DNA of 41,579 nucleotides from Psammoneis japonica (GCA_008632985.1 QPGO01000357.1:1-41579), one strand, 5' to 3'. Shown: positions 622 through 36,952, numbered from the stretch's first letter. The notes: generated by a model not told the origin, from the letters alone. Translations and numbers: made by a program.

Positions 622-1055
622 TGCCCCATGCATGCACTGGGCGCTGAAAAAGAAGATGTGTCACGACTTTGTCGTTGTGAAAATCATGAGCCAGTTTAGA
701 GTAGAAAAAGTGGGATCGTGCGAATGGGGAATCTTGCCAAATCCCTGTTCGCTCGCATTTGGATCGCATCAAATCGATCGTGCGCTCGCATTGTGGATCG
801 TGCAAATCAAGCCATCACGCACCACACACGAGTGATGTCATCGTGTGGAATCACACTGCCATCGTTGGCCAGATGACGGGCTAGTGTGCTTCACACGGAC
901 GCTCTCTTAGCATCCTTCTGGAATTGCTGAAGACCTAGAGCCACGCCCTCCTGTGGTCGTGCTTCCCAGGTACGTGTTAACAATACTACGTTGCCACGTA
1001 CAAGAGGCTTATGCACGGTCTCGCCGTGTTGTCCAGTAACGAGGCATGCTGCACA
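622..1055 (-). repeat. 3' LTR (last few bases and TSD damaged)
   Basis: Matches 5442-5874 and the reverse complement of 2806-3241. On the minus strand it begins TGTGCA right after the PPT catgggggag. Confidence 0.92.
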
Positions 1056-1092
1056 CTCCCCCATGATCAGGGCCGTTAAGTGACAGAATGTC

Positions 1093-2396
1093 TTACTGGT
1101 GATAGGGTACAATCTGCCGTAGTTTATACGTATCTATCAGCGCTCCGTTCTGGATACGCAACGTGCCGTTGTCATATACACGGACAACTCTGGCGGGTCC
1201 TGCATAGCTGTCAGAACCGTATTTAGAGGATTGTTCCTGTTTGATAAGTACCAATTGCCCTACGGTATATTGATACTCTTTGCGTTTCTGATTTTCACGC
1301 TTGTTGTTTAAGTGGATAAGCTTCTGCTTTCTGGTTTCTATGTGCTTCCACTTAGCACGATAGGCAATAGATAAAACCGCATCGCGTCCGAAGACCAATT
1401 GCATGGGACTTGCACGCGTGGTCGTGTGTACCGTAGCTCTAATAGCGAAGGCTACTGCGGAGAGGATGCCACTCCATGGGTCATCTTCATCCAGTTCCAT
1501 ATCCTGTACTGAAAAGGAACGTACCATGTTACCAAGTGTCTGGTGTACACGTTCCACTATGGCATTCGCCTGTGGATTCCGTTTACTTATGGGTTTCTTC
1601 AAAATCCCATGGTCATTTTTAATCATCTGGCTGAATTCTGCCATAAATTCTGTCCCACGGTCATTTGGCTAAATATATAAATTCTGCCATAAATTCTGTC
1701 CCACGGTCATAAACCACCTGGGTTGGCCACGGATATCTGCATAGCCACGTTTGTTCTACGACGTTTGCTACGACGTCTGCGCGTTTCGTAGACACTTCTT
1801 TAATCTCGAACCACCCGGTTGCTGGGTCAATCATTGTGACCGCCCATAATTGCAAAGTGTCCTTTCCGTGTCTTTTAATTTTATATGGCCCTATCATATC
1901 TATGCACAGAGTCTCCCATGGAATTATCTCGGCGACCTTTTCTGGTAGCTTCCCATAACGCTGCGTTCGGCGTTTTGTCTTCTGACATCGATCGCACTTA
2001 AAGGACGTAGAATGCACCGTAGACCTCATACTAGGCCAGTAGAAGTGCTGGGCAATAGATATTTCCGGACGTGTCTCACCTGGATGACACAGTGTCTCGT
2101 GGCACCATTCAGTTAGCGGAACCTGCAATGACTGTGGTACTGCGATTTTGTCCTTATGACCCTCCCCCACGATACGCGCGAATGGAGTAGTCGGACGAGT
2201 CCTTAGCTCGTGAGAGCAGGCACTTGTCCTTTTGTTGTTCTTTTTGAATGCGCTTGAAGTTAACAGGCAGATATAGCTCATCTTGAGCGTCTGCATTAAA
2301 GGCTTCATGCAAAGGACGACTCGATGGAGTGTCTTTTACATCCGGATTGGCCTCGGAAGGCAAGCTGGGTGCCAGTCGAAGGCGACTGAGAGCATC
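1093..2396 (-). pseudogene. Gypsy pol 3' part: RNase H end plus integrase (HHCC, D,D-35-E, C-terminal GP motif); frameshifted, mostly TpA-intact
   Basis: Motifs DALSRL, HETLCH...CDRC, LCIDMIGP, YDRGTEF, NPQANAIVERVH, YAGPARVV. Frameshifts near 2155 and at 1634-1710, where a 31-bp duplication plus 15-bp filler hits YDRGTEF. Confidence 0.93.
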
Positions 2397-2805
2397 CTCT
2401 CCGCAGCAGCCTTCGCCATTAGAGCTGCGGCACACACGACCACGCGTGCAAGTCCCATGCAATTGGTCTTTGGATGCAATGCGGTTTTATCTATTGCCCA
2501 TCGTGCTGAGTGGAAGCACATAGAAACCAGAAAGCAGAAGCTCACCCACTTAAACAACAAGCGTGAAAATCAGAAACGCAAAGAGCATCAACATGCCGCA
2601 GGGCAATTGGCACTTGTCAAACAGGAACAATCCTCTAAATGCGGTTCTGACAGCCATGCAGGACCCGCCAGAGTTGTCCGTGCACATGACAACGGCACGT
2701 TGCGCATCCAGAACGGAGCGCTGACAGATGCGCACAATCTACGGCAGATTGCACCCCATCACCAGCAAGACATTCTGTCACTCAACGGCCCTGATCATGG
2801 GGGAG
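2392..2805 (+). pseudogene. Inverted, TpA-hypermutated second copy of the integrase C-terminus plus PPT
   Basis: Gapless match to the reverse complement of 1056-1469; all Tyr codons became His/Cys and the TAA stop became CAA. Confidence 0.95.
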
Positions 2806-3608
2806 TGTGCAGCATGCCTCGTCACTGGACAACACGGCGAGACCGTGCACAAGCCTCTTGCACGTGGCAATGCAGTGTTGTTGACACGCACCTGGGAAGC
2901 ACGACCACAGGAGGGCGTGGCTCCAGGTCTCAGGCAATTCCAGAAGGATGCCAAGAGAGCATCCGTGTGAAGCACACCAGCCCGTCGTCTGGCCAACGAT
3001 GGCAGTGTGATTCCACATGATGACATCACTCGTGCACAGCATGTGATGGCTTGATTCGCACGATCCACAATGCGAACGCACGATCGATTTGATGCGATCC
3101 AAATGCGAACGAACAGGGATTTGGCAAGATTCCCCATTCGCACGATCCCACTTTTTCTACTCTAAACCAGCTCATAATTTTCACAACGACAAAGTCGCAA
3201 CACATCTTCTTTTTCAGCACCTGGCACACACACAGGGCACAGCATTGTTGACACGCACCTGGGAAGCACGACCACAGGAGGGCGTGGCTCCAGGTCTCAG
3301 GCAATTCCAGAAGGATGCTAAGAGAGCATCCGTGTGAAGCACACCAACCCGTTGTCTGGCCCACGATGGTGGCGTGATTCCACACGATGACATCACTCGT
3401 GCATGGCGCGTGATGGCTTGATTCGCACGATCCACAATGCGAACGCACGATCGATTTGATGCGATCCAAATGCGAGCGAATGGGGATTTGGCAAGATTCC
3501 CCATTCGCACAATCCCACTTTTTATGCTCTAAACTGGCTCACAATTTTCACAACGACAAAGTTGCAACGCATCTTCTTGTTCAGCGCCCAGTGCATGCAT
3601 GGGGCACA
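2806..3608 (+). repeat. Full LTR (2806-3241) followed head-to-tail by a 5'-truncated LTR (3242-3608)
   Basis: TGTGC...GCACA termini on the full copy; the second copy restarts about 68 bp inside the LTR and ends ggggcaca at 3608. Confidence 0.92.
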
Positions 3609-12855: not shown

Positions 12856-13245
12856 GACGCGTTCCAGCCCCAGGTGGGACTCCATGTGACATTGGGCCCG
12901 TAGAATTCCATGTGCGAGCTCCGCAGTTGAAGAATTTAATTGATGGACACATTTGTCTTCAACATCAAATGAACGGCCAAGTTTGTGGTGCAATTGTGCC
13001 TCTTGCCACTCGACGTTTTTGCAAATGCGCCTGCCCCACGCGATTCTTAAGACATTCTAGAATCGCGCTGTAACAAAAAATGTCAAAAGTTGTTGGACGG
13101 ATCGCTCAACAAGTGCACCGTAAAATGACACAAAATGTCGAAAAATTCACGTAGAAATCTGCGTGCGCGACATGCGACGTGATTCAAAAAACTGTCGATG
13201 TCACAGTTCAGTGGCACGAGGTCCCACCTAGACCTGGAACGCGTC
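12856..13245. mobile_element. 390-bp MITE (GACGCGTTCCAG termini), TpA-converted copy, inserted in RNase H
   Basis: ~25-bp TIR; 4-bp TSD tttt; excision restores WRPKIAKGLRL; second copy at 24237-24627. Confidence 0.92.
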
Positions 13246-14680: not shown

Positions 14681-16187
14681 GCCAGCTCGATGACATTGGG
14701 AACAAGCCAAAAATGTTGAGCCAGGGATTGCCTTGCATTTGCAATGGGGTCCCAGTTGCTCGGGTTGATCTTGTCCCCGAAGGTGCAACCCGTTTGCAGG
14801 ACGCCTGGTCCGCATTGGACGCTGGCATGCATGCTGACGAGGTTCGGGTGATGCTTCACATTGCGGAACATGCCACTCACGTCATCGTCCCCGAGGCAAA
14901 TCTCCTCATGTGGGTGTGAGATCCTCATGTTCCATGTCCACACCATGAAGTCCATTTCAGCTGATGGGAATGTGATTGGAGGTTCATTCTCCAGATCCAG
15001 TGTGTCGTTGATTGCCATGCCGCCCGGTGTTGGGCGCATCGTGCTGTCAAAGATTGGACGCGGGCTTTTGCACTTCTTGTCCAAATCTGCCATTCCTTGT
15101 GGAGTTAGATGGCAATTCAGCAAGTGCGGCACGAGCTGCTGGTCAAATGGCAATGTGAACCCCTTGCGAGATTGTCCTTGACAACTGCTGACAATGTCTT
15201 TGCAGGATCTGCATCAACAGTCTTGTGGTTGCCATGGCACAAGGCTGCTTGAAAGTTGGCTTCCGAGAAGGCAGCATTGCATTTCACTGGCACCCTGTCT
15301 TGGAAGATGCGGCGGACATGTGCCATTGTTTCATTGGGGACTCGGCCTTGCATGAAACGGAGGATTTTTGTCCGTGTCGCGGTGCTCGCCAACATGTGGT
15401 CCGCCAACCCAGCGCACCAGATTCGCCGGGTCTCCATCGAAGTGCAACAGCACAGCACTTGTCATTGCTGCTTGGTCATCATTGACTTCAGTCTCCATTT
15501 GCCACCCTTTTGGGATGGCCACGCAGCAGGTTGAAGTCAACATCGCCGTGTTCTTGGACCAGACCCATGAACACAGCCACTCCCGGGACAGCGGCGCCAA
15601 AATTCAACCAATCCTCACCAAAATGGATGCTGACAGACGCAGGATTCATGTGTTTGATTGGTGGTGACAGATGTCCCGACTTCCAGAGTGGCAACAGCAC
15701 ATGATGCAGACAGGCTTCGGACACAAAACATTGGTTCAAATTTTCCTTGCCGAATTTTTGGTCCAACTTGGCGCGAACCCCCGGAGACAGTTGCGCACTG
15801 GCAAAGTGCTCGCAAGCTGCCTTGTTGAAACCATTGTTGATGGCTGGGATCAAATCCGCACCCTTCTTCTTGTGAACCAACGTAAAAGTCGGGAACAGCT
15901 CCACCAGCTCTCTCTCTCTTCGAGAGGTGCCGTCGGCACAACCGCAAGCCAACGCAGGCTCGGATGTGGTTCCATCACAGACGTGGCAAGCGCAGCATCT
16001 GTGGCTGGAATGGCATCCTGAATGCTCATTCCGGCCTCCTCTGGCTCTGCATCTGCTGCTTCACACTCCGGGTCGCTGTCGTCGTCCACATCCATTGCAA
16101 TGAGACGAGATGACCCATCCGGGATGACACAGACCAGTCAAAAGATTGATGGCACAGATTGAAACAACACTGGGTTTTCAAATGTGT

Positions 16188-18143
16188 TTAGGATGCACCA
16201 TCTGGGCCCTTTCCTGGGACAAATTCGAGCCCCTGGGTGTCCCGGACAAATTGGCAAAAGGCGTCTCGCTTTGCCTCCAGAATCTTTGACACCAATGATG
16301 GGTGTGGCTTTGGGCAGTTAGGGAACTTGCAGCAGCATCCTTCAGCACAAAAATGCATGCAAACACGTTCCTCCTGGTCTGATCCGTTCTTCTCATAAAA
16401 GACTGGACAGGCAGGAGGGCGCCTTGTTGTTCCCGAAAAAGTGAGCATGCCCATTGCCTTGTAGAGCTCGGCCGCACTGTCGGTCGTGTCCTCCGCACGC
16501 GGCTTCTTCTTAGGAGGTTGACCAGACTTGGTCTTTTCATCCTGTTTGTCTCCAGCAGGGGGCAACACAGAACTCCCGAGAGGGACAAGGGCCAATGCAG
16601 ACGCTTCAGCAAAGGCGAGAGGCTTGCCCCGTGTGATGGCCGTGTTGAGATCCGCGATGAGGGACTTTGCCAGAGCACGAGCATCCTTCGCAATCTGATG
16701 GCTCAGTGGGCGCTCGGTTTCAACCGCCTGGCGGTGCAATGGAGAGTCCCCAATCTCGAAATGAACCTTGACAATGGTCTGGAAATCATCCATGACACTG
16801 GCAACGACTGGTTTCGGGTCCTCAAGGTTTTTGAGCCACGCACGGCCAGGATGCGACCAAAGGACCTTCGCGCATGCATCCAATGATTTCCACAACTCGG
16901 CATTGTCGAAGTCTTTGATCCAACAGCCAAAGACACAACGAAAGTTGCACAGTGCCGACCACAGATTGCTGGTGGCATCCATCCTCCCTTGGACACACAG
17001 GTCGCTTGCCTTTGCGTCGTCTGGGATCTTGCAGTCCGATCTGTCAGCAAGCACCCAATGGAGCGTCCTCCCTTCCTCCTCAAGGCTGGCAAAAGAAGAT
17101 GATGCAGTCTGGGGCGGAAGGAAGGGGAGGATTGACAGCTTTGTGCGGTGAGAAGCCTGGCTGTGCTGCGGAGGCTCCGCAACCACGTCAAAGCCGCAGA
17201 AACAATCCGCGCAGGCTTTGTTGACGACGGTGCACTTGTAGTCGACTCCGGCATCAAGACCACTGTCGCCACGAGCCGAAGCCACAACAGCCATCTTAAC
17301 AAGGTCCGCAAGGTCTCGGTTGGCGTTGGCTGCCGATGTGTCTTGTGGGATCTTGACTGCACTGTCCGCAAGCTCCCTGACAATGACCATGGGCGGGTCT
17401 TCCGGACCGGCACCAGCAGTCGCTCGGAACGCACATGGAGACCAGCGGTGACCAACATCACGCGCCCTCAACTTCTGATCTGACTCCTTCTTCGAATCCT
17501 GGCATGAGACATTGATGGTGTGGTTCGGGACCAGGCCGTTGGCGCCCTGAGCTGGAGCGGCGGGAGCTTGTGCATGCGCAGGCTCTTCACCACCGAGCTG
17601 CCTCCAAGTCTCATTCGCAAAGGCATCCATCGTGCTCTTGACTAGAGCACACCAATCCGTGAGAGGCTGGAGCATCTGTGCATCGTCATCATCAAGATTG
17701 CAGACCTCCAAACCGGAGAATTTGTCGATGACAGCAAAGCCAGTCTGCTCAAACACAGGGCCGCCTTCCGCGACGGAGACAGAAGCGTTGTGCTGCAGCA
17801 ACCAGTCGATGCCCTCAGCCCATGCCGCTCCAAGCGGAAAGTCAGCAGCAAGGGATGCTGGGGGGTTTGCCGGGTCGAAGTCAACAGGAAGAGCAACGCC
17901 CACAGGGATTGGTGGGAAAAGCGGGAGCGCAACAATGGCAGGGCGCTCAGCCGGTCCAGTGGGATTCCCAAAATGGAGACGACCCACCGACGCAGGGTCA
18001 CTGGTCCCGTCGTTGCCGACAGGACCGTCGGTTTCGTCAGGGCTCAGTTCGCACTTGGGCAGGTGGCAAGCATCCACGGCGCCTTGGGGAACTAAAGTGG
18101 TGACATGGCCTTGGAAACGAGTCCAACGGCCTGCAGCAGGCAT
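16188..18143 (-). pseudogene. ORF1 (gag-like) of the YR retroelement, with C-terminal CCCH-like zinc motif; open but TpA-hypermutated
   Basis: Long ORF upstream of RT ending in CMHF...C...C...H. Start placed at ATG 18143 because the TpA-intact paralog (19701-19944) has TAG stops in the upstream extension called in the ORF track. Confidence 0.75.
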
Positions 18144-18561
18144 CCCTGCGCAGCCGTCGTTGATGCCACTTTCCTGCGTCTGTGGGCTGTCCGTAGCGAC
18201 GCTGATCCCGCAGAAGCGCGCATTGGAAAACGCGACTCCTGGCACAAGACCTGTGAGAGGCTGCAGGAGGTCCATGCAACTGAGACCGGTGCGACTGGCC
18301 ATCGCGCAAGTGACTCACCTTGCATGAAGGGACTGCGTGGGGTGCACGCAGTGCCGAGTGTGAGCCTGTGGATTGGCTCTGCATGAGTGTCTGTGAGTCA
18401 CACAAAAGACTTGTCTCAGTTGCATGGACCTCCTGCAGCCTCTCGTGGGTCTCATGCTGGGAGTCGCGTTTTCCAATGCGCGCTTCTGCAGGATCAGCGT
18501 CGCTGCGGACAGCCTGCAGACGCAGGAAAGTGGCGTCAACNGACGGCTGCGCAGGGATGCC
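18139..18561. repeat. Fold-back: 18413-18561 is an inverted copy of 18139-18287
   Basis: Direct reverse-complement match of ~150 bp; contains an N at 18541. Confidence 0.9.
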
Positions 18562-19000
18562 CACTGCACTCGCCCCTGTGACAAGGTCGTACGAGTGACA
18601 GAAGGTCCTGCTGCTGGAGATGGACATTTTGAGGCATTTCACATGTGTCCACCAGCGCACCTTCTCGCACACGAAGTGTGACATTTTCGTCGACTTGAAC
18701 AACTGCAGCTGGCCCTGCATGACTGTCGGTGCCCGCCACTGTTCGTCCGTTGTTCTTGCTTGACAAGCACAAGTTGTCCCTTCGTTTGTTGGCACTCTCT
18801 TCTCTTAAAGTTCTCACGCTTGTCATTCAAGCGGAACATTTTCTGCTTTCTGTCTGCGACATGCCTCCACTTGGCACAACAGGCAACAGATGAACTTGTG
18901 TTGCGTCCGAAGACTGTCTGCATCAGAGTTGCCTTGGCAGTGGTCTGCAGCCCTGCAGTTGTACGTACAGCAAAGGTCACGGCAGAAAGTTTCAATCCAA
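18562..19000 (-). pseudogene. Diverged Gypsy integrase C-terminal fragment with PPT-like end
   Basis: LSAVTFAVRTT...MQTVFGRN...KWRHVADRKQK...NDKRENFKRRE...GQLVLVKQEQ, homologous to the 1093-1469 protein. Confidence 0.8.
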
Positions 19001-19700
19001 GGGTCGTCCTAACTCCATGTCTTGCAGTCCACTCGGATTGCTGTGTCAAGAACGCAGGTGTCACGCGGCTCCATTCCACCATGGAGTTCGCCCTGGGCAA
19101 AAAAAAAAAAGAAAAAAAGGCAGCGCATCGACACAATTGCAGAGGTGATCAGGCTCCACTTTCTGTCATGGCAACACCCATTCTGTCTTTGACAGGCAAT
19201 AGACAAAGCAAAAATTTCTTGCTCATATCACATTCTTTCACCTTCACGGAAAGAACGCATCTTTGAATGGCGGGCTTTTCGTCATAAAGCTCTTTTTTAC
19301 GCCAGTTCAGGTTGTTTTTTTTGAAGTTTACATGTTTTTTTGGCTCTTTTACGCCTTTTTTTGGCATTTTTATACTTTTGCAATTTTTATAGCCGAAGTG
19401 TCATATCCTTATATATAATATTCGGCGTTTCAAAAACGGCATTTTTCTTGTCCGTTGGCGTCGTTGAATTCAGTTAAACCGAATGGTCTGCAGCCCATGA
19501 GCGGTTAAGTACTCTGATTTTTTAGAGCATAAGATTGACTTTTACGCGGGTATTTGTCATATGTTGGGTTTTTTCGTTTAACCCTTCGAGCGTTTCGTCA
19601 CATAACGCCTCGTTCGTACTTTTGCACATAAAAGTAATAGCACTGTAGAATGTATGTATCTACTTTCACAGTATGTGCATCGTTTTCTGACACATGTAGA

Positions 19701-19944
19701 TTTCCTGCGTCTGTGGGCTGTCCGTAGCGACGCTGATCCCGCAGAAGCGCGTATTAGAAAACGCGAATCCTAGTATAAGACCTACGAGAGGCTACAGGAG
19801 GTCCATACAACTGAGACCGGCGCGACTGGCCATCGCGCAAGTGACTCACCTTGTATGAAGGGACTGCGTAGGGTGTACGCAGTGCCGAGTATGAGCCTGT
19901 GGATTGGCTCCGCATGAGTGTCTATAAGTCATACAAAAAGACTT
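19701..19944. repeat. TpA-intact direct copy of the YR-element leader 18170-18412
   Basis: Colinear alignment with 15 TpA->TG/CA, 3 CpG transitions, 1 other substitution and 1 indel. Confidence 0.95.
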
Positions 19945-21566
19945 ATGCTTAAGTCTTTCCAATGACTTATTGTGTAACAAGAATTCTGGTTTCTTGGAAA
20001 AGAACACCATCGCGTGTTTCTGCTCTAACTAAAATAATCTCATAATTTCTAAATTTCACACACAACAGAAATTCTCTGTCTCTCTACGACTAAGCACTTG
20101 GACCCCATTTTTGCATGGGGCAGGCCGGACATCGGGATGACCTCACCGATCGTATCCGAGAGGCTCCCAATCCACCTCATGTTCCCATCAGCATGCTGCC
20201 TGGGGCGAGGTTTCACCACAACCGTGATCTTGCGATTGTGGACCGTGTGGAAAAGGTCCGAGGTCGCGAAGACATGGTCACGAAGCTCCTTCTGGGCATC
20301 ATGGTGGACCGTCGTCGAGACAGACTCGAGCACACCCGCAGAGGAGGGCAGAGTGGCAGAGTGCCACTTGGTGGCGGCCAGCTTGCCACGGTTGATGGCA
20401 GCAACATGGGCTCAGCTTATGGTGGAACAACAGAAATGTCGGAAAACAAAGGCTCGTCCAATCTTGAAAAAAAGGAAAAGTGAGAACAAACACGCTGGAA
20501 AGTGAAAGCGACCAGCGTGTGAAATTGCTCAGGAAGGACAAGCGTTGACCGACATCATGTCGGTTCCGCGAACGTAACCCCACCTGATTCCTGTGCTCAT
20601 CCAACACATGAAGACAAGGATGAATCGAGCATTTGGTCCCACGTGACGGGTCGGTTTCCATCACCATTCATCATCATGATTGCGCGCATTTCGCGAGAAA
20701 ACGAGAAAACTCCGAAAAACGTGGTGACAATTTTCGTTTTGGCCAAACCCTCCCGAGAATGAACATGTGTGCACGCAATCAGCATCGGCCAAACAACTGT
20801 GATGCATCCGACACAACACAGTGTGTGAATGCACACATCTGTGCATGGCATGTCTCGGTGAGAGGGGAGAAAAATTTGGACACGCCGAGAGGAAAGGTGA
20901 TGACCATGGCCGAAAAAGCGGAGAAAAAAGGAGGGGCCAGCATGGGCGCCCATGAAAAGAGCAGCAAATGGATTGAAAAACCACACTGATGTTGCCCATG
21001 TGGGACTTAAATGGCACTTGGACCGTGCGTGTGAGGATGCACTCCTTGTGAGAAAGGCACCATTGAGAGGTGTGGCAAAACAGGCCAGAGTGCGAGGCAA
21101 TCCTCGGCCGCCGAAGCGGTCCCTGCCATGAGCGGACCCAATCGGGATTTAGAGCAATGCCCATGTGACATGGCTCCGAAATGGTGTGACCTCAGTCAAC
21201 ATTGACAGGAAAGGTGGGAGGTGCATCCACAGGACAGCGCCGAAATGGCGTGGCAACAATGGGCGCCAATGCACGAGACACTCCCGACTGCGCAAACGCA
21301 GACCACGCAAGGGATTTTCCATTGACTGACAGGGAGGAGAAAGTCACCTTTCAATTTTCATCGTTGGCATCTCCTTGGAGACGCCTCGACAGCACCATGG
21401 TGTCTCCCATCCTGCCAGACAATGAGGGATCCCTTGGGCTGGCCTCGTTTCCGCTCATCTTGTCCGTCATCCGTCCTTCAACCCATTTTGCTGCCACATT
21501 CGCGCGGTGACTCTCGGTCCAGTCAAGGAGGTCCTCTCCTTGCTTGGCCTGGAGTCTTGGCTGCGA

Positions 21567-21964
21567 GTCATTAAATCAATCGTCAAATGATTGCACCCAC
21601 AGCACTGCTAAAGTGATCAGTGAAGTCATCATTTGTGCGGACAAAAATCCACGTGATGAGGTCATTCGATGACCGATTTCCCAACAACATTGATCAAAAA
21701 CAGCTTTGTCGCAGGGTGCGGTTATCCCCAGGCAGGGCCTAAACCCCCTCAACAAATTTTCAACTTTTTTCATCATTTTGACTTTGGCATGACGTTGTCA
21801 TGAGACTGAATGGAAAGTTTCAACACAAACAATTGACAAACATCGGTCATTGAACCAATCTTAAAATGATCACACCCAAGGCACTGCCAGCGCAATTAGT
21901 GAAGTCATCGTTTGTGCAGACAAAAAAACACGTGATGAGGTCATTCGATGACCGATTTGCCCAG
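21567..21964. repeat. ~279-bp tandem repeat (unit 21567-21845, partial unit from 21846); the preceding partial unit lies at 10151-10315
   Basis: gtgaagtcatc...cacgtgatgaggtcattcgatgaccgattt occurs twice; 21680-21845 aligns with 10151-10315. Confidence 0.82.
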
Positions 21965-22159
21965 AACTTAAACAGAAAACAGTTTTCCATTTAAATTTTA
22001 GTCAAATCGGTCACAGTCATCAGAGCAAAAATGAGGACATGAATGTCAATTGGCCGTCATTCTGGTCATCTACATGAGACAATCAAGCTGTGAGGGAAAA
22101 ACCATGGTGCAGCTGCATCCATCACGCCACCACCATGAATGGGTCCATGCGTCACGACA

Positions 22160-22237
22160 CCAAACAACAGGTGTTGTCCCTCCACCGGTGGATTCCGAGA
22201 CCAAACAACAGCTGTTGTCCCTCCACCAGTGGATTCC
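22160..22237. repeat. Two-copy 41-bp-period tandem repeat
   Basis: ccaaacaacag(g/c)tgttgtccctccacc(g/a)gtggattcc twice. Confidence 0.85.
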
Positions 22238-24236
22238 CCCCTTCCTCCTTCGGCGGCACATGTGCTGGTGGAGGCTGTTCTTCTGGTGGCATGGCAATCA
22301 AAGCACGAATGGTCGGTTGGTGCAGTGCCACGTCGACATCATAAAACAACAGGTCAATGGGTGGTGCGTGCAATGTGTGTCAGTCTTGCCTGCATGTGGA
22401 AAAAACACTGAATTGCTCTGTGGGAAATTTTCTGCTTTTTTCATGCTTTTTTAACTTTTGCGTGACGTCATCGTAATGCGGGGGTTGCATGTTCCAAAGC
22501 TCCGATTGGTTCCACTGGGCTCTGGGTGAGTCTCAATCACCTCCAGATGGAGGAGGTTCTGCTTGGGAATGATCATCCTGAGAAAAGTCATCACCACACC
22601 TCCTGTCGTGGATGCTCCTCTGCCATGCCCGCGCCCATGCAAGGAGCATCGACCAGTGCATTGGTGCTCGTTGATCCTGTGCCTTTGTTGTTCCAAGCAA
22701 AATCGCCTTGCTCTGCAAAAAAAAAGGCCCGCTTGCATCCACAGCAGTCGGAGCACGAGTGAGATTGTTTTGCCTTGTTGTTGCATTGTGCTTGATTACA
22801 GCACTCAATGACAAATGGCGGCAATGTCATCCACGGTCAATTTTAGATCCGATGAAAATGGGCCCAAACTTCAGGATTGCAAATCTGCTGTGTTTGGGTC
22901 ACAACAGCGGGTTTGACGGCACCGGCCAACATGGAAGAGACTGCTGTGTCAGGAACGGCAGGTGGGTGTGCGTCAGGTGGTGTGGGGGATGAAGAACGGG
23001 AGGTCGTCATGGTCAAGTCGTCGAAACACGTGATGTTTTGGTGTGTGCGCTGTCTTCCAAAAAGTGCGCTTCCGCACCCTTGGTTTTTGGTGGTTGGAGT
23101 TTTAGGGGAGAATGTGGCTCAGGATTTTTCCTGCTGCTGTTGGCATTTGTGTGCAAATGCACAAATGAACGCAAGAACATTTGTGCAAAAATGTGATGAA
23201 CAAGACACAAACTGCCACGCAACCATGACATCACCACATTCTCCCCCACCACAGGGGTGTGTCTGCTGGTTTTGCCATTTGCTGCGGTGTGAGTGACAGA
23301 CACACAGGAGAGAGACGGCGCGTGCATGCGCGTGCGGCACAAGTGTGGCACACGTGATGCGAGGAGGAGTCAGTGACCATGGCGGTGTCAAGTGTCAATC
23401 ACAACCTCCTCCAGCTGTTTCTCTGTGCACTTCAACAATGCAACAGGGTTCAGATGACTCCCATGATTTGTGATTGTTTGAAAGTGACAATGATTGTTTG
23501 AAAGTGACAATCGAAACACTCGGCATTTCGCTGCTTCGACTTGGTTCCATGAATGAGGATGACAGCCATCAGAAGTCAGAATCGAGCTCTTGTTGTGGAT
23601 CTGGACTTCTCGAGCAAACTCATCAGCACGTCTGCCACGTTTGTTTGGGCTGCTCACTGGCGCACTTTTTGATTGGCTGCTTGCTGCCCTTCTTCTTGCT
23701 GGTCTTGTTGCTGTCTCCAAACAATGCCAAATCTGGAAAGATGTTGGTTTTGCTGCTTGGTGCTGAAACAACTGGCAACATTTTGCCCAGCTGTGGGGGC
23801 TTGTGTCTCTGCAAGGGGCTGCGGCAGTTTTCGGAACACCCCTGCTGCACAACAGCCTTGGCAATTCAAGCATCATGCACAGCACATCTTGGCACATCCC
23901 CCATCAGTTGTCTCTTGTTGGAACCAAACATGGTGCACCACCCAGTTTTGTGTTTTGCTGTGGATGGTTGTCTTTGTGTTCATGTGCTTGCCATTTTGCT
24001 GGCAACCAGCCAAGGTGCAACTCATGTGCACACATCATCAACCAGAACAAGAAACAAGGATCATGGCAACAGCAAGGGAGGTTCCATTCAATGTGGTGTG
24101 ACAGTCAATGCCAGGGAAGAAGAGGATGCTTGGAGTGATGATGGCTTGCCTTGCGACCTTCTTGTGAAACCTGGCAAGAGTCAAAAGTGAGAGGACACCA
24201 GTGGTTGCCTTCTTGGGTGAGTTGAGCTTTGGATGC

Positions 24237-24627
24237 GACGCGTTCCAGCCCTAGGTGGGACTCCGTGTGACATTGGGCCCGTAGAATTCTACGTGCGAGC
24301 TCCGTAGTACGAGAATTTAATTAATGGATATATTTATCTTCAACATCAAATAAACGCCCAAGTTTGTGGTACAATTATGCCTCTTACCACTCGACGTTTT
24401 TGCAACTTCGCCTGCCCTACGCGATTCTAGAGACATTATAGAATCGCGCTGTAACAAAAAATGTCAAAAGTTGTTGGACGGATCGCTCAATAAGTGTACC
24501 GTAAAATGACACAAAATATCGAAAAAAATCACGTAGAAATCTACGTGCGCGACATACGACGAGACTCAAAAAACTGTCGATGTCACAGTTCAGCAGTGCG
24601 AGGTCCCACCTAGACCTGGAACGCGTC
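24237..24627. mobile_element. 391-bp MITE, largely TpA-intact copy of 12856-13245
   Basis: Same TIRs; 4-bp TSD atgc at 24233-24236 and 24628-24631. Confidence 0.93.
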
Positions 24628-24859
24628 ATGCTTCTTGCTGGCGTTGGGCTGGAGTGATGGCAGTCCAGCAAGTGTCGCACAAGCAAAAATGCTTTGCTCA
24701 GCGCTGGGAGCTTTTGGGTTGCAAGAACGACTGAAGAACAACTGTCTCACCACCTGGTTCAGAAACATCTTGTTGCTTGCTTTTTGCAACATCTCCATGC
24801 AGAACAGAAGAAGCTGCTTCCTCAGCACACAGTGCACAAGATGCTGCATCCTTGTCAGA

Positions 24860-25803
24860 TGCACTGTTGTTGTTCATCTTGCCCACTTGCTTGGATGCAC
24901 TCCTGCAGAAATGACAAGCTCGCGCAATGTTCAATGCGAAGAAAGAACATGACGTTGCAAATCAATTCACACCATCGCCATTTGGAGAGTCTGCATGCTC
25001 AAGAAAATGACAACAAAAATCAAGGCAACGAGGAAGAAGAGGAGCACAAATCCCAAGATGAACGAAACAATGATGACGATCCCTGCGCATTGTTGGCATC
25101 GGCATCAAGTCGCAGCATGGCATTTGTCGGACTGCACACCATGATTCTAGCCATGGGCCTGTCTCTGTGTGGATCGACGGCAATTGTTGGATTTGCATCG
25201 CTGCGAGGGGATTGCATCGCTCCGTGCTTTTCCAGTGACAATTTGAGCATGCGTGTCGGGATGTTTGGTGGAGCCATTGTTGTTTTTGCAAATTTGCTGC
25301 TGCTCTGTGCCGTGATTTTTGGGGAATTTCGAGTGAGCAAGCACAAAAGAATGCTGTGTGCAAGCTTTTGTTGCTTCTGCTGCTGTCTGTGGAAATGAGA
25401 CGTGTTGCCACACAACCACTGCCAACATGCAGCAGCTCTTGCCATTCATGTGCACAGACTTTCATTCAATGGACCTTCATTCAATGTTGCTTCATGCTCA
25501 ACATTTCGTTTTGCTTTTCTTTTGCAGGTGGAAGACTTTGTGGATCAACGAGAAAAGGAAGAGATGGAACCCTGTGCCGTGGAGCGAATGTCCAGCGCAT
25601 TGGCCATTGCTTGCATGTTTCTGAGTGTGCTGTACACGACATTGGCCGTCTTGCTCTTTTTGTGCTCTGAAAAATCAGAGGAACCAAAAAAAGTGGATGC
25701 GGACCACGAGTCGTCCCATCACACCAAGCCGTTGGTGACGGTTGGTCCTCGTGATCCAAACGTGTCGTCTTCAGGATTTCTTACAATGGAGACAACGACG
25801 TGG
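24860..25803 (+). pseudogene. Host-type multi-pass membrane protein gene or gene copy with intron 25333-25527, TpA-hypermutated
   Basis: Hydrophobic segments continue in frame across gtgagc...tttgcag; Cys/His stand where Tyr would be expected; TGG at 25801 is a probable former TAG stop (inference); 5' limit uncertain. Confidence 0.6.
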
Positions 25804-25981
25804 TCCACGTTTGGACCAAATCTAGAGTCGCAAAGCATCCACTTGGTGCATTGTGTTGGGATCTTCTTTTGCATTGGGCCTTTTTCATTGAGTTGACACT
25901 TTTGGCCATGTGTTGACTCTTGTTTAAAGCACTGCCTTCCTGCAAAGACTACTCTAGAGTAGCTAGTAGAGCTAAGAGTAC

Positions 25982-25993
25982 GTAGGGCCCTAC
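25982..25993. promoter_or_regulatory. Perfect palindrome GTAGGGCCCTAC upstream of the IPI1-like gene (second copy at 37050-37061)
   Basis: Exact 12-bp palindrome present twice, each upstream of a gene start; function inferred only. Confidence 0.35.
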
Positions 25994-26146
25994 CTCTGCT
26001 AGCTCTAGGCCGCTACTCTCTCTATGAGACCGGCAAACTCTTACTTGCTAGCTGGGGCCGGGGGCGGGGTGGCTAGTTGCGGATGGATGGACGGACGGAT
26101 TGTTCCGACAATGAAGTCTGTCAGTTATCCGTTGCATCTTTGCGCT

Positions 26147-26215
26147 ACACACACACACACACACCACACCCCACACACGCACGCACACGACACAGCGCAC
26201 AGCGCAGCACACAAC
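26147..26215. repeat. Imperfect (CA)n microsatellite in the 5' region of the IPI1-like gene
   Basis: acacacacacacacacaccacaccccacacacgcacgcacacg... Confidence 0.8.
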
Positions 26216-26261
26216 ATTTCTCATGAAAAAATAGCCAACGACAACAACCTATGTTTGCACC

Positions 26262-29014
26262 ATGTCTTCCAAACGCAACCGTAGTAGTAGCACAGGATCA
26301 GCCCCCAAGAAACGACTAAAAGCAAAAGTTGGAAAACGAGCTACCACCAAGAACGAGACGGACACTGATTTCAAGGCTGTTTCGGTACAGGTTTCACATC
26401 AACGAATTTCTGTAGAACAATCCTTGCAAGAATTGCTACCCAAAGCAAGTCATCCCTCGGCTGTGGTACGCAAATCATGTCTACAGACAATGTTGCAACA
26501 GAATTTGTTACAAGAAAATTCCGTTTCATCGCTGTGGATACCCGTCGTGACCAAGTGTGCCAGTGTCGATGAGGATGAGAGTGTGAGACGGGTGGGATTT
26601 CAAATTTTGCAACAAGAGTGTCTCGAGATATCGCCACATCATTTATCCATTATTCTGGCCTATGTGTCATCCGCCATGGTCCATCTCAATGTGGATATTC
26701 GGTTTCACGGATGCAAACTATTGACGCTCTTTTGTACTAACAACAACCACGTTTTGCGGGATCTGCAGTGCGTCTTTTTACCGCTCTTTCCGAGACTGCT
26801 AAGGGATGCCTCGAGTGTGACCAAGAGCGATTACAACAAGACCAATAAGTATGGTGAAAAATCCAAAAAGAAAAAGAGCACATTGGAAGATCGGTTATCG
26901 ATTGTGTTGGAGGCGCTCGTGGCGTTTCTAAAAGCATCGTTTTCACAACAACAAGCTTTGGCAGAGATGAGAGAATCATTTCCAATCGAATTTCGTACCG
27001 CTTCATCCAACGGTGTATTCGTATCTCCTTCGCGAGCAGTTTCTACAATAGATACACCAATTCAGAGCATGAGTGACTTTTGCAACATGTTGCAGCAACA
27101 ACAACAAGAATATTCTTTGGAAACGAAAAGTCGAGACTTGCCGTTTCCAACCGACTGCGTGTCGATCCTGGAACGACTCTGTGACGTGTTGATTGAGTTA
27201 CAACAACAGTCGAACAAGTCTTCTCCATCGCACCTATTGCTTGTACTGGAATCGGTTCGCATTCTGTGGAAACAAATCGTATCCTTGGAAAAGTTGTCGG
27301 GACGTTTGCTCAAGCTCTTGTTGGAACTCTATAATCCCATTCACGTGGGTAATTCTGCAAACATGGCATTATTACAAGTCAATACATTGTTGGTTTGTCT
27401 CTTGGTGGAACTTGGGCGTGATCAAAATAGCAACAAGGATTGGATGCATCCCGTTGTTTCGGTTTGTACTAGTACTACACAGAATTCGAGTAGTTTCGAG
27501 GCTATTGAAACCTTGTTGGGAGATTGGAACCCAAACGACAACGAGAACGACGACAACGACGACACTACGAGTAGTAGTGCCATGTGTCACGAGGTGTTTC
27601 AATCCGTGTGTGATTTGTACTTTTCTCATGACCAAGAAACAACGGTGGATCCATTGTCTTCCCGCAAAGCCGTAAAACTCGTGCTGGGTATAATCACTCG
27701 ATACAACAACGATTCGAATGACAATGTAAACGAAAAGTCTCGGAAGCGATTCATTGCCTTGACGAGAAATGTCATTTCAGGTTTACCAAAGTATATCACA
27801 GCATGGGACACATGTTATTCGGACGGTTCGACTGTGGTATGGAAGTTCTTGTTGGATGCGATACGAAAGCACGACTTGACCGAAAAGGAGAAAAATACAA
27901 TCATGACGAAGGATTTGATGCAAATATTGTCAACGGATACTTCTCGTTGTCTTTTTAAAGGTACGAAAAAGAAGCAACCAATTTTATTTGTACGGTATCC
28001 TGAGCATATCCAGCGTATAGTGGTGGCATTCCTCGGGACGCTAATTCAGTCTCATCACGAGGGCAACGCAGACACTATTGTACGGGGACTGGCCAAGTCG
28101 TGTCAACCACAAGCTACTACGCTGAGTCCTATGATTTGCGATTATGTGTTTGACGTGATGCACACGGTCCGACGATGCGTGTCTATGCAAACGTATTTGG
28201 AATTCGTCATGGACAGTGTGACTATCAAGGGCACGAAACAGAATGACAATCCAGACAAATGTATCTCGTGCCAAGCAATCATGAAACACGACGAGTCATT
28301 CAAGCGTGCGTGCCGTGCCCTTGTTGAATGTGGGAGTGCCTCCAAGGTTTTGATGGCTCTTGAGGAAGTCTTGTTGAGCTGGATTAGCAGTACGGAATCC
28401 TCTTGTCTCGATTCGATTCGAACCAAGCGGGCGGCAATTCTAGTGTTTGCGAGCTTTTCTCTACACCTCAACAGAGATGACTCGTCTGTGTTTCAAGTTC
28501 TGCCACATCTCTATGATCCCACAGCAAATGGCGTTTTTGTGACTTGCTTTCGAAGTTTATGTTTGCTAGTGAAAATGCCAGCAGTAGCAATAGCCAGTTT
28601 GACGCTCTGATTCGGCCCATCTTGGTGAGAAAATGACAGTCTCCTGAATTCGCATGCATGCTACTGTTTGTCGCATTTGCCGTTCTCATGTACATTGCCT
28701 CGTTTTCATAGGTCTTGATCAACTGCGAGCCTCGTTTACTATCGGCCATCTTTCAAGAAGCTGCCAATAGAATTGTTGGCTATGAGAAACATACGGACGA
28801 AGCAGAGGCATTCTCGTCCGATACGCTTCTCTTGCGAGCATTGATTAAACTGATTCCGTCACCAGAGATTGTCAGTGTGGTTCGACAAGAGTCGGAGCAA
28901 CTGAAAAGAAATTGTCAAACGATTGAGTCCCACATTGCAAACTGTGGATCTCGGAACGATCACCTCGGCGGGAACCTCCGGACAAGACTCGATGCGATTG
29001 TTGGATTTTCCTAA
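26262..29014 (+). CDS. IPI1: IPI1/TEX10-like Rix1-complex pre-rRNA processing protein; intron 28625-28711; apparent +2 frameshift at ~28535
   Basis: N-terminal KKRLKAKVGKR...NETDTDFKA...Q and SHPSAVVRK...DEDESVRR...SSAMVHLNVDIR match the Ipi1_N pattern. GT-AG intron is conserved in the duplicate. ggcgtttttgtg here versus ggcgtttgtg in the duplicate. Confidence 0.78.
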
Positions 29015-29558
29015 GACACGTAATGGCACCTAACGAATGCAAAGTGTTGCGGCTTCGACTGTGACTGCTTCTACGGCTCAAGCAAGCAATAAGTAGAAGG
29101 AGCACCAAATCGCAATGATTGGTGTGTCTACTACCATACTCCTCCTTCGCACTCTGTTGGCGCTGGAGGTGCAGTACGTTTGCTAGGAATGCGAACAATA
29201 CACTACTACTTCTCCGTTCGATGCATCATTTCATACACGTATTTTAACGCACACGACTTTGGTAGGTAAAGACAAAGTGTTCCTACACAAGTCTCTAGTT
29301 GCGGAAAAAATGGATTTCGTTTTGACATCTCATTAAAATAAACAAGAGTGGAGTTTCGATGGTAACGACATATCGCTTTGCGTTGTCCTCCATGCCAATG
29401 TCTGGCACACTGCCAGTTTCCTCTTCCATGGAGATTCTAAAATATAAATGTTGGAACAACAGGTGTAGTCTAGCAGGTCTGGATTTATAATATCGCAGAT
29501 CTCCCTATAGAATTTAGCGCCGTCTATCTTGACGTCCATCGCCTGTTTCCCGTGTTCT

Positions 29559-31175
29559 CATTGTTGGTTTGTCTCTTGGTGGAACTTGGGCGTGATCAAA
29601 ATAGCAACAAGGATTGGATGCATCCCGTTGTTTCGTTTTGTACTTGTACTACACAGAATTCGAGTAGTTTCGAGGCTATTGAAACCTTGTTGGGAGATTG
29701 GAACCCAAACGACAACGACGACGACAACACTACGAGTAGTAGTGCCATGTGTCACAAGGTGTTTCAATCCGTGTGTGATTTGTACTTTTCTCATGACCAA
29801 GAAACAACGGTGGATCCATTGTCTTCCCGCAAAGCCGTAAAACTCGTGCTGGGTATAATCACTCGATACAACGATTCGAATGACAATGTAAATGAAAAGT
29901 CTCGGAAGCGATTCATTGCCTTGACGAGAAATGTCATTATAGGTTTACCAAAGTATATCGCAACATGGGAAACATCCTATTTGGACGATTCCACTGTGGT
30001 ATGGAAGTTCTTGTTGGATACGATACGAAAGCACGACTTGACCGAAAAGGAGAAAAGTACAATCATGACGAAGGATCTGATGCAAATCTTGTCGACGGAT
30101 ACTTCTCGTTGTCTTTTTAAAGGTACAAAAAAGAAGCAACCAATGTTATTTGTACGGTATCCTGGGCATATCCAGCGTGTAGTGGTGGCATTCCTCGGGA
30201 CGCTAATTCAGTCTCACGAGGGCAACGCAGACACTATTTATTGTACGGGGACTCGCCAAGTCGTGTCAACCACAAGCTACTGCGCTGAGTCCTATGATTT
30301 GCGATTATGTGTTTGACGTGATGCACACGGTCCGACGATGCGTGTCTATGCAAACGTATTTGGAATTCGTCATGGACAGTGTGACTATCAAGGGAACGAA
30401 AAAAGATGACGATCCAGACGAATGTATCTCGTGCCAAGCAATCATGAAACACGACGAGTCATTCAAGCGTGCATGCCGTGCCCTTGTTGAATGTGGGAGT
30501 GCCTCCAAGGTTTTAATGGCTCTTGAGGAAGTCTTGTCGAGCTGGATTAGCAATACGGAACCCTCGTGTTTCGACTCGATTCGAACCAAGAGAGCGGCAA
30601 TCCTAGTGTTTGCGAGTTTTTCTCTACACCTCAACAGAGACGACTCGTCTGTGTTTGAAGTGCTGCCACATCTCTATGATCCCACAATAAGTGGCGTTTG
30701 TGACTTGCTTTCGAAGTTCATGTTTGCGAGTGAAAATGCCAGCAATAGCGATAGCCAGTTTGACGCTCTGATTCGGCCAATCATGGTGAGAAAATGGCAG
30801 TCTCCTGAATTCGCATGCATGCTACTGTTTGTCGCATTTGCCGTTCTCATGTACATTGCCTCGTTTTCATAGGTCTTGATCAACTGCGAGCCTCGTTTAC
30901 TATCGGCCATCTTTCAAGAAGCTGCCAATAGAATTGTGGGCTATGAGAAACATGTGGACGAAGCAGAGGCATCGTCGTCCGATACGCTTCTCTTGCGAGC
31001 ATTGATTGAACTGATTCCGTCACCAAGGATTGTCAGTGTGGTTCGACAAGAGTCGGAGGAACTGAAAAGACATTGTCAAACGATTGAGTCCCACATTGCA
31101 AACAGTGGATCTCGGAACGATCACCTCGGCGGGAACCTCCGGACAAGACTTGATGCGATTGTTGGATTTTCCTAG
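29559..31175 (+). pseudogene. 5'-truncated tandem duplicate of the IPI1-like gene (copy of 27385 onward); intron 30786-30872; +4 frameshift at ~30238
   Basis: High identity to 27385-29014, continuing into the 3' flank; actatttattgta versus actattgta. Confidence 0.9.
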
Positions 31176-31437
31176 TACACATACACTGTAATGTCACCCA
31201 ACGAATGCAAATTTTGTATCTTTGACCTGTGACTGCTTCTATGGCTCAAGCAAGCAATGAGTCGACGGAGCACCAAATCGCAATGATTTGTGTATCACGG
31301 CGGGTTTCATGGCTTATTTGCGCGCAATGCGGGCAAAGGCGGAGAGCGTCAGAAGAAGATAGAGTCTTCTATCATCATCATTTCGATACCTCTCCTCGCG
31401 TCCATACCATTCGCTACACTGCTTACAAACGTCAAGA

Positions 31438-35440: not shown

Positions 35441-36952
35441 TCACAACCAGTCTTCGGATTTGGGCATGTGATCAAAGCAGCAATACACGTAAATCGACTT
35501 GCACAGACCTTCTTGATGGGCGCTCCAAATTTCAACGCGCTCCTTGCAACCCAAATGACCGCATTCATCAAATTCTCTGTCCGGATGAGAGGAATGAGGG
35601 AGAGTCGTATCCTCCGTTGGTGGCGCGTCTTTGTCTTCGTCGCTTGAGTCGTCGTCTAGGGCAAGGTTATTGACTCCTTCCTCCAACACCACATCGTCGC
35701 TTGAGTCGTCGTCTTGGGTAAGGTCATAAACTCCAGACAGAGGTACTCCTTTCTTCACTACCACATCAATGATGCATTCGTCTTCCATGTGTGGGGCGAA
35801 ATCTTTTGGTGTGTGTGTCGGTGGGATTTCATCTCCATCAAATATGAAAGCAAACCTGTCGGGCGCCTGCACATCCGTTCGCGTTTTTTTGTAGCGATCA
35901 AACACTTCTTGAAAAACTATGTCTGCACAAACCACAAATTCATTTTGCATTGACTTTTCCTGAAACTTCAACTTTAAAAACGGAGGTCCTCCTGGTTGCA
36001 GTTGTTCCTCTTGTAGGGTTAGGGTTTCGTCCGTGGCGGCACGAGGAGCCATGCTGGCGTCACGAGCATCCTTCCATTGGGGCTTGTTGATCGAAAGCCA
36101 TTCCCCTACCTCCCCTTGTCGTCCCGGAAATTCCTCCTCGAGCTCAGGAATGATCGCATACGGAGGCCCTCCTGGTTGTAGTTGTTCCTCTTGTAGCATC
36201 TCTTTACGAATGCGCTTTACAACGGGTGGCTTTCGGTTCCGGTTCCGTTGTTTCCTCAAGAATTCCTTTCGCTTGGCCACTTTGGCTTCCTCCCACTCAC
36301 AGGCTGCCAGCGCTTCCTCCGAAGGACGGCGCGGAGGGTGAGGTTGCAGAGCGGTAATAAGCTCGGCTAAGACTCGTTTTTGAAAGAAGGTTTGCTTTGA
36401 CTTTTTATCTCGATACCTCTGCTGCCGTTCTGCACCGGTCAGTGGGCGCGAAATGCGGTGGCGAGTGGTGTGGCGAGCCGCTTGTTCAGTGTCGTCCGAT
36501 GCTGCACGGTGAGGATGCAGAGCGGTAATAAGCTCGGCTAAGACTCGTTTTTGAAAGAAGGTTTGCTTTGACTTTTTATCTCGATACCTCTGCTGCCGTT
36601 CTGCACCGGTCAGTGGGCGCGAATTGGGGTGGCGAGTGGGGTGGCGAGCCGCTTGTTCAGTGTCGATCGATGCTGCAAGCTTGGGGGCACTATCAGCACA
36701 CTTGATGAAACGATCCATCTTCCATTTGACCTTTCTCTTGGTCATCCATCTTCCAAACTGCGCTTCCTGACCCGCAAATTCCTCGGCTATCTGAGGAAAC
36801 TTCTTATACAACGTCGAAACCTGGTAATACGGCATAAAGACCTCATCCAACTTTCCATTTCTGGCAGGCTCGATGACGAGCTCGCTCAACGTGCGGTTGT
36901 GATCGTCAATCGTACCATAGAGTTCGTCGGGTTTGTCGGACAAAGTACTCAT
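35441..36952 (-). CDS. ~503-aa protein with internal repeats, a SUMO/Rad60-SLD-like ubiquitin-fold domain, SIM-like acidic motifs and a C-terminal Cys/His cluster
   Basis: Uninterrupted ORF, first ATG at 36952 (the ORF track start is TTG). FLKLKF...FQEVFDRY...FAFIFDGDEIPPTHTPKDF..MEDECIIDV resembles SUMO-like domains. Also VYDLTQDDDSSD and a 171-bp internal duplication. Confidence 0.75.
   Translation of the reverse strand: MSTLSDKPDELYGTIDDHNRTLSELVIEPARNGKLDEVFMPYYQVSTLYKKFPQIAEEFAGQEAQFGRWMTKRKVKWKMDRFIKCADSAPKLAASIDTEQAARHPTRHPNSRPLTGAERQQRYRDKKSKQTFFQKRVLAELITALHPHRAASDDTEQAARHTTRHRISRPLTGAERQQRYRDKKSKQTFFQKRVLAELITALQPHPPRRPSEEALAACEWEEAKVAKRKEFLRKQRNRNRKPPVVKRIRKEMLQEEQLQPGGPPYAIIPELEEEFPGRQGEVGEWLSINKPQWKDARDASMAPRAATDETLTLQEEQLQPGGPPFLKLKFQEKSMQNEFVVCADIVFQEVFDRYKKTRTDVQAPDRFAFIFDGDEIPPTHTPKDFAPHMEDECIIDVVVKKGVPLSGVYDLTQDDDSSDDVVLEEGVNNLALDDDSSDEDKDAPPTEDTTLPHSSHPDREFDECGHLGCKERVEIWSAHQEGLCKSIYVYCCFDHMPKSEDWL
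36338..36665. repeat. In-frame 171-bp-period tandem duplication inside the CDS
   Basis: DTEQAARH..RH..SRPLTGAERQQRYRDKKSKQTFFQKRVLAELITAL.PH occurs twice. Confidence 0.92.

Follow-up and report, generated by a model that had tools for sequence, protein, structure and literature searches.

Evidence for inherited, repeated mutation of TpA dinucleotides in mobile DNA of the diatom Psammoneis japonica

A 41,579-nucleotide stretch of the genome of the diatom Psammoneis japonica (GCA_008632985.1, QPGO01000357.1:1-41579; the whole stretch is referred to as the window) carries a rearranged retroelement insertion that contains three pieces of one long terminal repeat (LTR), two of which have lost almost every TpA dinucleotide. 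Comparison of these pieces with one another and with their paralogs in the genome indicates that TpA has very probably been lost through inherited, iterative mutation by a host process, which would permanently replace the adenine of TpA by G, on one strand or the other, leaving TG or CA, in chromatin domains rich in mobile DNA. As far as the available short-read contigs allow, the data settle that TpA was lost by mutation that is inherited, rather than seeming lost because modified bases are misread in sequencing.

Results

TpA loss in three pieces of one LTR

Copies A, B and C are LTR pieces of a single rearranged gypsy-type insertion (Table 1). Searching the genome with the LTR sequence returned at least 43 matches, and 30 loci were aligned with copy C to give 31 copies. 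The corresponding strings quoted in a preliminary description of this DNA are found at 19768 and 18237 on the plus strand and, on the minus strand, in the inverted copy (18413-18529), and its count of 15 lost TpA steps among 16 is confirmed by alignment. The compared part of copy A (19701-19944) contains 16 TpA, of which copy B (18170-18412) keeps only the one at 18194 and reads TG at nine and CA at six of the others; relative to A, the inverted copy C has lost nine of nine. Among polarised sites, 20/21 are converted in B and 11/11 in C.

The difference between A and B is highly specific. Outside TA and CG steps a single column of 162 differs (19767, a transversion), and none of 74 A/T positions outside TpA shows a transition (Fisher p=3.5e-16), so that A-to-G and T-to-C transitions are restricted to TpA, as described for Bigelowiella natans. 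At CpG, three of 19 steps differ, all three lost in B. Copies B and C differ from each other at 11/117 bases, and at the nine sites converted in both (19714 included) they agree at five and disagree at four. Site 19714 is TG in A and B, CA in C and TA in 8/31 aligned copies; the supposedly intact copy A thus already carries a hit, as had been proposed, and a second one lies at 19883.

Direction of the change

The 31-copy alignment contains 14 TA-type columns, whose 401 cells comprise TA 116, TG 130, CA 155 and CG 0, and 29 CG-bearing columns with CG 448, TG 202, CA 198 and TA 0; four further columns hold both TA and CG, and two hold neither. These counts point to two decays, one from TA and one from CG, that converge on TG/CA. 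An outgroup test at residue-changing sites of a gypsy pair (622-1469 and its inverted partner 2392-3239), with metagenome relatives as outgroups, favours the TA-rich copy at 17 sites and the converted copy at 4, with 2 ties. TpA stands at 0.0-0.3 of expectation over most repeat DNA vs 0.4-0.9 in the gene island. Taken across copies and outgroups, these comparisons show TA to be ancestral and TG/CA derived, and the polarity proposed earlier holds.

Conversions are fixed in the DNA

The preliminary description had raised the possibility of a live modification, present on the two adenines of TpA and read as G. On this reading, the assembly would pick TG or CA at random. The disagreement of B and C at 4/9 sites does resemble coin flips, TG and CA are about equally common, and B and C are absent from the short-read contigs listed. 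Such a modification, however, predicts strand-pure molecules, with TG from the plus strand and CA from the minus strand. We compared the window with the short-read contigs of run X1, which derive from one 2019 sample, presumed to be DNA; the assembly may itself have been built from them, but an argument from phasing is no weaker for that. Runs X2 and X3 have too low a cover for contig comparison. Contigs of this kind are built from 31-base words that occur in the reads.

Two X1 contigs match converted DNA exactly (Table 1). The first, at depth 31, reads CA at 16116, TG at 16125, CA at 16130 and CA at 16135, that is, within 21 bases, where 4, 6, 5 and 7 of nine paralogs, respectively, keep TA. 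The second reads TG at 23651, CA at 23663 and TG at 23682, with polarity given by the single TA-bearing paralog, L043, which has TA at all three. For comparison, a gene-region contig has depth 56. Both outcomes fall inside one 31-base word, and each such mixed word occurs in one of the 130 loci fetched, which argues against live modification; if only one strand were marked at each site, words would combine TA with one outcome, unlike those observed. All 21 difference rows listed in 15633-17535 (40 of the 1027 difference rows from the contigs are listed) match known paralogs.

Duplicated copies also share their outcomes. Across 77 columns of host-repeat duplicates on four contigs, L050, L051 and L053 share 66/66 outcomes and L052 shares 65/65, while private CpG differences persist; L048 and L049 share 51/67, unrelated pairs about half, and the LTR copies L006 and L024 share 11/11. 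Copy comparison thus shows that TpA loss is fixed in the DNA and has been inherited through later duplications, a result that for B and C comes without read confirmation. The mixed words and the shared outcomes leave live modification with very little probability, although a short-lived deoxyinosine intermediate is possible as part of the mutation path.

The second contig lies in a converted copy of a gene-like sequence (~23400-25300), whose TA-richer paralog L043 is on contig C88; a 2434-base contig found in runs X1 and X2 matches this region piecewise. Within it, a short element at 24237-24627 (paralog at 12856-13245) has a summed X1 contig depth above 160,000, indicating very high copy number, and contains 27 TpA, compared with 8 in the paralog.

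Repeated hits and independent strand choice

Conversion continued after duplication. Having shared 65/65 outcomes with L050, L052 underwent three further conversions vs one, and L024, after sharing 11/11 outcomes with L006, acquired two more. Differences between such near-identical duplicates are almost confined to TA and CG steps: L050 and L052 differ at 12/30 TA, 37/228 CG and 5/2851 other sites. L050-L053 (contigs C324, C270, C240 and C287) are segmental duplicates, 98-99.6% identical over 3.4 kb, with CpG decay at 20-68 times background, a rate that is high for plain methylcytosine decay.

The strand of each conversion in the LTR copies (L024 left out as a duplicate of L006) is unrelated to that of its neighbours. 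Neighbouring hits fall on the same strand in 124 of 242 cases against 123.9 in permutations (p=0.52), so that no strand runs were detected, and 24 of the 25 copies with at least four hits mix TG and CA. The strand is therefore shown to be chosen independently at each site. Mixed strands disfavour a single pulse of deamination followed by replication, since this leaves strand-pure copies; many sparse events fit the pattern, and site-by-site repair within one episode would also fit. The several rounds postulated earlier are supported by the later hits in duplicates and the lack of strand runs, but not by site 19714, the evidence first offered for them. Because A and C probably stem from one LTR and C has CA there, the site was TA when they split, and the match between A and B may be due to chance, TG being 9/23 outcomes in that column.

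In a table of sequence contexts, drawn from copies that are not independent and not built upon here, hits favour the CTAC strand by 100 to 37, and the contexts that most often survive are TTAG/CTAA and TTAA.

Conversion is confined to mobile DNA

Within the insertion, conversion stops abruptly. TpA density is 4-11 per 100 bases in 19200-20091 and 0-2 on either side; conversion reaches ~19170, largely spares the sequence beyond 19200 and resumes in the last 30 bases of A. In a map of polarised sites made with a loose column filter, 29/32 are converted in 18200-19199 and 5/33 in 19200-19799, some of the converted states in A possibly being old subfamily states. The left edge of the spared island falls within a single colinear segment and so is not accounted for by the age of the sequence alone, unless an unsampled copy had refreshed A and its neighbour.

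The gene island provides a control. Its 1.75-kb, 93.6% identical tandem duplication has changed at 12/70 TA steps vs 55/1382 other columns, TA being changed about 2 times as often. More broadly, TA changes exceed other changes 18-118 times in 11 mobile-DNA pairs and 1-2 times in three gene-region pairs, among them the gene-island duplication and silicon-transporter paralogs; the higher ratios are lower bounds, because the targets saturate. Confinement to foreign or mobile DNA is likewise a feature of the B. natans process. Since the gene-island duplicate is untouched, repetition alone is insufficient for targeting, and this contrast suggests guidance by silent chromatin and not by repeat pairing. 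The 3' part of an Ipi1/TEX10-like gene (26235-28610; Pfam Ipi1_N) lies in the same tandem duplication. A hairpin formed by B and C was dropped as a conversion trigger, as its loop and 600 bases beyond its arms are converted too.

CpG steps change in parallel, at 4-68 times background in the same mobile-DNA pairs, and across copies CpG loss correlates with TpA loss (rho 0.42, p=0.02). This may be a separate process acting on 5-methylcytosine (5mC); diatom transposons are described as carrying DNMT5-dependent CG methylation (PMC9998398).

Five LTR copies (L003, L004, L010, L018 and L020) keep most of their TpA. Three of them (L004, L010 and L018) lie in TpA-poor loci (0.22-0.27), a pattern that would fit young insertion or protection of the LTR. 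Among 49 metagenome relatives of the integrase encoded in the window none is TpA-depleted (0.57-1.02 of expectation), which is weak evidence, as the search favours intact copies.

Structure of the insertion and other features

The ~2-kb block at 18132-20122 begins with TG, ends with CA and has GGCC on either side. Paralog L046 preserves the empty site, with one GGCC followed directly by sequence matching 20127 onward; the insertion is also missing from eight more paralogs, and X1 contigs link the two flanks directly, at 18127/20128 and 18131/20129. Among the matches within the genome, members of the LTR family share a common 5' start and have unrelated flanks, and 18132 is the exact start of the full-length matches from 27 of 28 other LTR loci. 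Copy C and 1.07 kb of internal sequence (18413-19635) are colinear with L017, and 18564-19017 resembles the 3' end of a gypsy pol gene, being 65% like window positions 1049-1493, which adjoin, on the downstream side, an integrase open reading frame (ORF; Pfam Integrase_H2C2 and rve). TG...CA ends, a short target-site duplication, a purine tract and pol-like internal sequence are the features of a Ty3/gypsy LTR element. The block is best read as a gypsy-type element that has suffered deletion and an inversion accompanied by duplication; A, B and C would have been nearly identical at the outset, with A and C probably coming from a single 3' LTR. The three-way paralog set of the preliminary description is thus real in that there are three copies, but A is not intact, and the origin of all three as LTR pieces of a single insertion had gone unrecognised.

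Table 1. Positions of the insertion, its surroundings and the supporting contigs in the window
Feature	Positions	Strand	Remarks
Host repeat, left part, TpA-depleted	15500..18131		10 or more copies in the genome; ORFs without Pfam match
Exact short-read contig, converted DNA	16005..16260		run X1; 0 differences, depth 31
Target-site duplication, left copy, GGCC (4 bp)	18128..18131	+	paralog L046 with single GGCC
Copy B, LTR 1-281, truncated 5' LTR	18132..18412	+	TG start; almost fully converted
Copy C, LTR 1-156, inverted	18413..18568	-	fully converted; single N at 18541
Internal region normally preceding 3' LTR, inverted	18569..19635	-	purine-rich tract adjoins C
Spared island within one insertion	19200..20091		TpA near expectation; left edge off any sequence junction
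Copy A, LTR ~33-460	19694..20122	+	CA end; mostly spared; hits at 19714, 19883 and in last 30 bases
Target-site duplication, right copy, GGCC	20123..20126	+	empty-site paralog L046
Host repeat, right part, TpA-depleted	20127..20850		
Second exact short-read contig, converted DNA	23457..23721		run X1; depth 43
Control: 1.75-kb tandem duplication, gene island	27385..31296	+	93.6% identical; not TpA-mutated

Elsewhere in the window, a 538-amino-acid ORF on the minus strand (35441-37057) encodes a SUMO-like domain (Pfam Rad60-SLD) and contains a 170-bp internal tandem repeat (36337-36677). The genome has 24 silicon-transporter matches, scoring up to 697 bits, and the nearest atlas clusters are mostly Bacillariophyta; contig C38 (226311-230342) carries a triplicated silicon transporter in a single open frame of 1511 amino acids.

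Discussion

Mechanism and candidate enzymes

Granted inherited, iterative mutation, deaminase chemistry is the favoured route, held with reasonable rather than strong confidence. A DNA adenine deaminase would make deoxyinosine at one adenine of TpA, the inosine would template C, and replication or repair would fix G:C. The resulting TG/CA would no longer be the palindromic target, and this destruction by the first hit would explain why TA columns never reach CG. Low-density hits over many cell generations would build the mixed TG/CA pattern, with targeting that would follow silenced, probably 5mC-marked, chromatin. At this locus, the LTR element would have entered a host sequence that was already repeated, and inversion with duplication would have produced the nearly identical B, C and A; conversion would then have affected 18132-19170 and the final 30 bases of A, sparing about 900 bases.

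Profile searches of the genome gave nine matches to PF00383 and four to PF02137, which, judged by eye, we take to include a dCMP deaminase, TadA-like (contig C38), ADAT2-like (contig C26) and RibD-like proteins, two small deaminases and two ADAT1-like proteins. Within the loci read, none is expanded or fused to a chromatin domain. Locus L063 (contig C79) presumably joins a small deaminase domain to a 2-oxoglutarate/Fe(II) oxygenase domain, again by eye, a fusion that probably serves nucleotide metabolism. A search with PF00145 found 27 C5 DNA methyltransferase matches, at least six of them with long open frames; several, on contigs C297, C10 and C28, are broken.

Several observations weigh against inherited TpA mutation by a host process. 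No candidate enzyme stood out among the PF00383 and PF02137 matches, which look like ordinary deaminases. The converted copy of the gypsy pair, unlike the LTR and host-repeat families, is strand-biased, with 28 TG and 8 CA when read in the frame of its TA-rich partner, which speaks against independent strand choice. In a fourth gene-region pair (L059/L060), one change suffices for a nominal ratio of 24 times. The short-read evidence consists of contigs of one sample, and X1 holds only 0.53 of the words sampled from 18545-28500. B and C are not among the 24 of 4564 contig pieces listed, and at position 18254 all three contigs counted show C, the letter of other copies, and not the T of B. Five listed rows restore TA (21495, 21826, 23451, 25169 and 25195), and 23451 alone was matched to a paralog (L043). 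In the gypsy pair, the few hits of the TA-rich arm lean the opposite way, so that hits on the minus strand of the window may account for both arms.

Alternative explanations

The strongest competitor accepts the inherited mutation and departs from the deaminase proposal in chemistry alone: a miscoding or badly repaired adenine methyl group or other adduct, or an error-prone heterochromatin polymerase, would be the source. We regard such chemistry as a serious, though distinctly less likely, option. The lack of an outstanding deaminase candidate speaks for it, as do the 27 methyltransferase matches and the elevated CpG decay, whose correlation with TpA loss hints at a shared upstream mark. A-to-I deamination is established chemistry that yields A-to-G, however, and a pure A-to-G change at one dinucleotide is its expected product. 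A DNA-acting ADAT2/3 has also been published (PMC10354150).

The arrangement of B, C and A could also be an assembly chimera or a fold-back read, a concern raised in the preliminary description by the single N at 18541 and compounded by the fact that no contig among those listed spans 18412/18413. The N is the only one in the window, is one base long, faces a gap in B and is no scaffold gap. The divergence of B and C at 11/117 bases rules out a single molecule read twice; C is followed by internal sequence of its own, which is colinear with L017, and the outer ends carry the target-site duplication, for which an empty site exists. Chimeric copies are thus improbable, and 28 other copies support the mutation pattern whether or not the B|C junction is right.

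Editing of retroelement RNA or complementary DNA before insertion, by ADAR- or APOBEC-like enzymes, leaves a one-strand signature that is fixed at insertion. The copies are indeed LTR pieces, and one gypsy pair is strand-biased. Pieces of one insertion nevertheless differ, A being spared relative to B and C; both strands are hit within copies (24/25 mixed); the host repeat and the gene-like copy at 23.4-23.8 kb are converted as well; and hits continue after segmental duplication, which refutes pre-insertion editing as the main cause and makes this account very unlikely. An opposite direction of change, whether a CA/TG to TA mutation in A resembling repeat-induced point mutation (RIP) or a CG ancestor passing through TG/CA to TA, could appeal to the 29 columns in which CpG decay does yield TG/CA pairs and the four with both TA and CG, but is refuted by columns with TG in some copies and CA in others yet no CG in 401 cells, by the outgroup vote of 17 to 4 for the TA-rich state and, further, by TpA depletion in repeats relative to the gene island, and has next to no probability left.

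Significance

These observations place a process described in 2026 in a single rhizarian alga in another major lineage of algae and in transposons, adding inheritance, iteration, a boundary inside one element, an untouched gene-island duplicate and parallel CpG decay. The locus offers a test case, in that three same-age pieces of one LTR lie together, two rewritten and one spared 1.3 kb away. If real, an enzyme that naturally edits adenines of chromatin DNA with TpA specificity would represent new enzymology. Genomes of this kind are also prone to errors in the dating of LTRs and the annotation of repeats, because the process distorts both.

Comparison with known systems

RIP of ascomycetes is a C-to-T mutation at CpA that raises TpA; it is triggered by duplication itself, hits both copies, depends on RID/DNMT4 and acts premeiotically. 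Like RIP, the present process hypermutates one kind of dinucleotide by transitions and, over repeated rounds, ruins mobile DNA. Unlike RIP, it has the opposite chemistry, turning TA into TG/CA where RIP makes TpA from CpA, and it leaves the 1.75-kb duplication (93.6% identical) untouched and spares one linked copy out of three, so that fungal RIP was rejected for want of its defining direction and duplication trigger. The link of RID/DNMT4 to RIP is documented in PMC9998398, and a Rhizoctonia paper, in the text available, concerns RIP indices only (PMC7884421).

Decay of 5mC at CpG, known from methylated diatom transposons (DNMT5, PMC9998398), turns CG into TG/CA and explains the 29 CG columns but is unable to remove TpA. 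The ADAT2/ADAT3 enzymes of amphioxus carry out A-to-I and C-to-U changes in DNA and so offer a possible chemistry for both the TpA and the CpG channel; their reported preferences for TCG, GAA and hairpin loops are unlike the TpA target here, and their abstract mentions no role in genome defence (PMC10354150).

The closest counterpart is the chlorarachniophyte Bigelowiella natans. Our literature search, which covered few subscription journals and, for the preprint, the main text and not the supplements (where other taxa might be named), returned the preprint on this species and no report from a diatom. According to the available part of that preprint, de novo TpA to TpG/CpA mutations arise in integrated viruses at ~1000 times baseline, a subset of them was Sanger-checked, activity is limited to certain clonal lines, and TpA-poor sequences are enriched for transposon domains (Mettrop et al., bioRxiv 10.64898/2026.01.13.699255). 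The process in P. japonica matches it: TpA changes to TpG/CpA on both strands, the changes are fixed and confined to blocks, TpA-poor DNA is rich in mobile-element domains, and adenine deamination is likewise proposed. The systems differ in host, a rhizarian there and a diatom here, and in targets, the live targets in B. natans being two integrated viruses, one of them single-copy, as opposed to multi-copy retroelements and other repeats. Near-complete conversion, a boundary inside one element and parallel CpG decay are seen here and, going by the same portion of the preprint, not in B. natans, whose targets are described without an excess of G/C to A/T change comparable to the 4-68-fold CpG excess found here. 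As a tentative proposal, which we hold to be possible but rather less than even, diatoms and chlorarachniophytes may share an old, chromatin-guided defence by DNA adenine deamination, a natural TpA-specific A-to-G editor that would act over many generations on silenced mobile DNA, ignore plain duplications, be kept out by a protected zone associated with the LTR, and perhaps use the same machinery as CpG decay.

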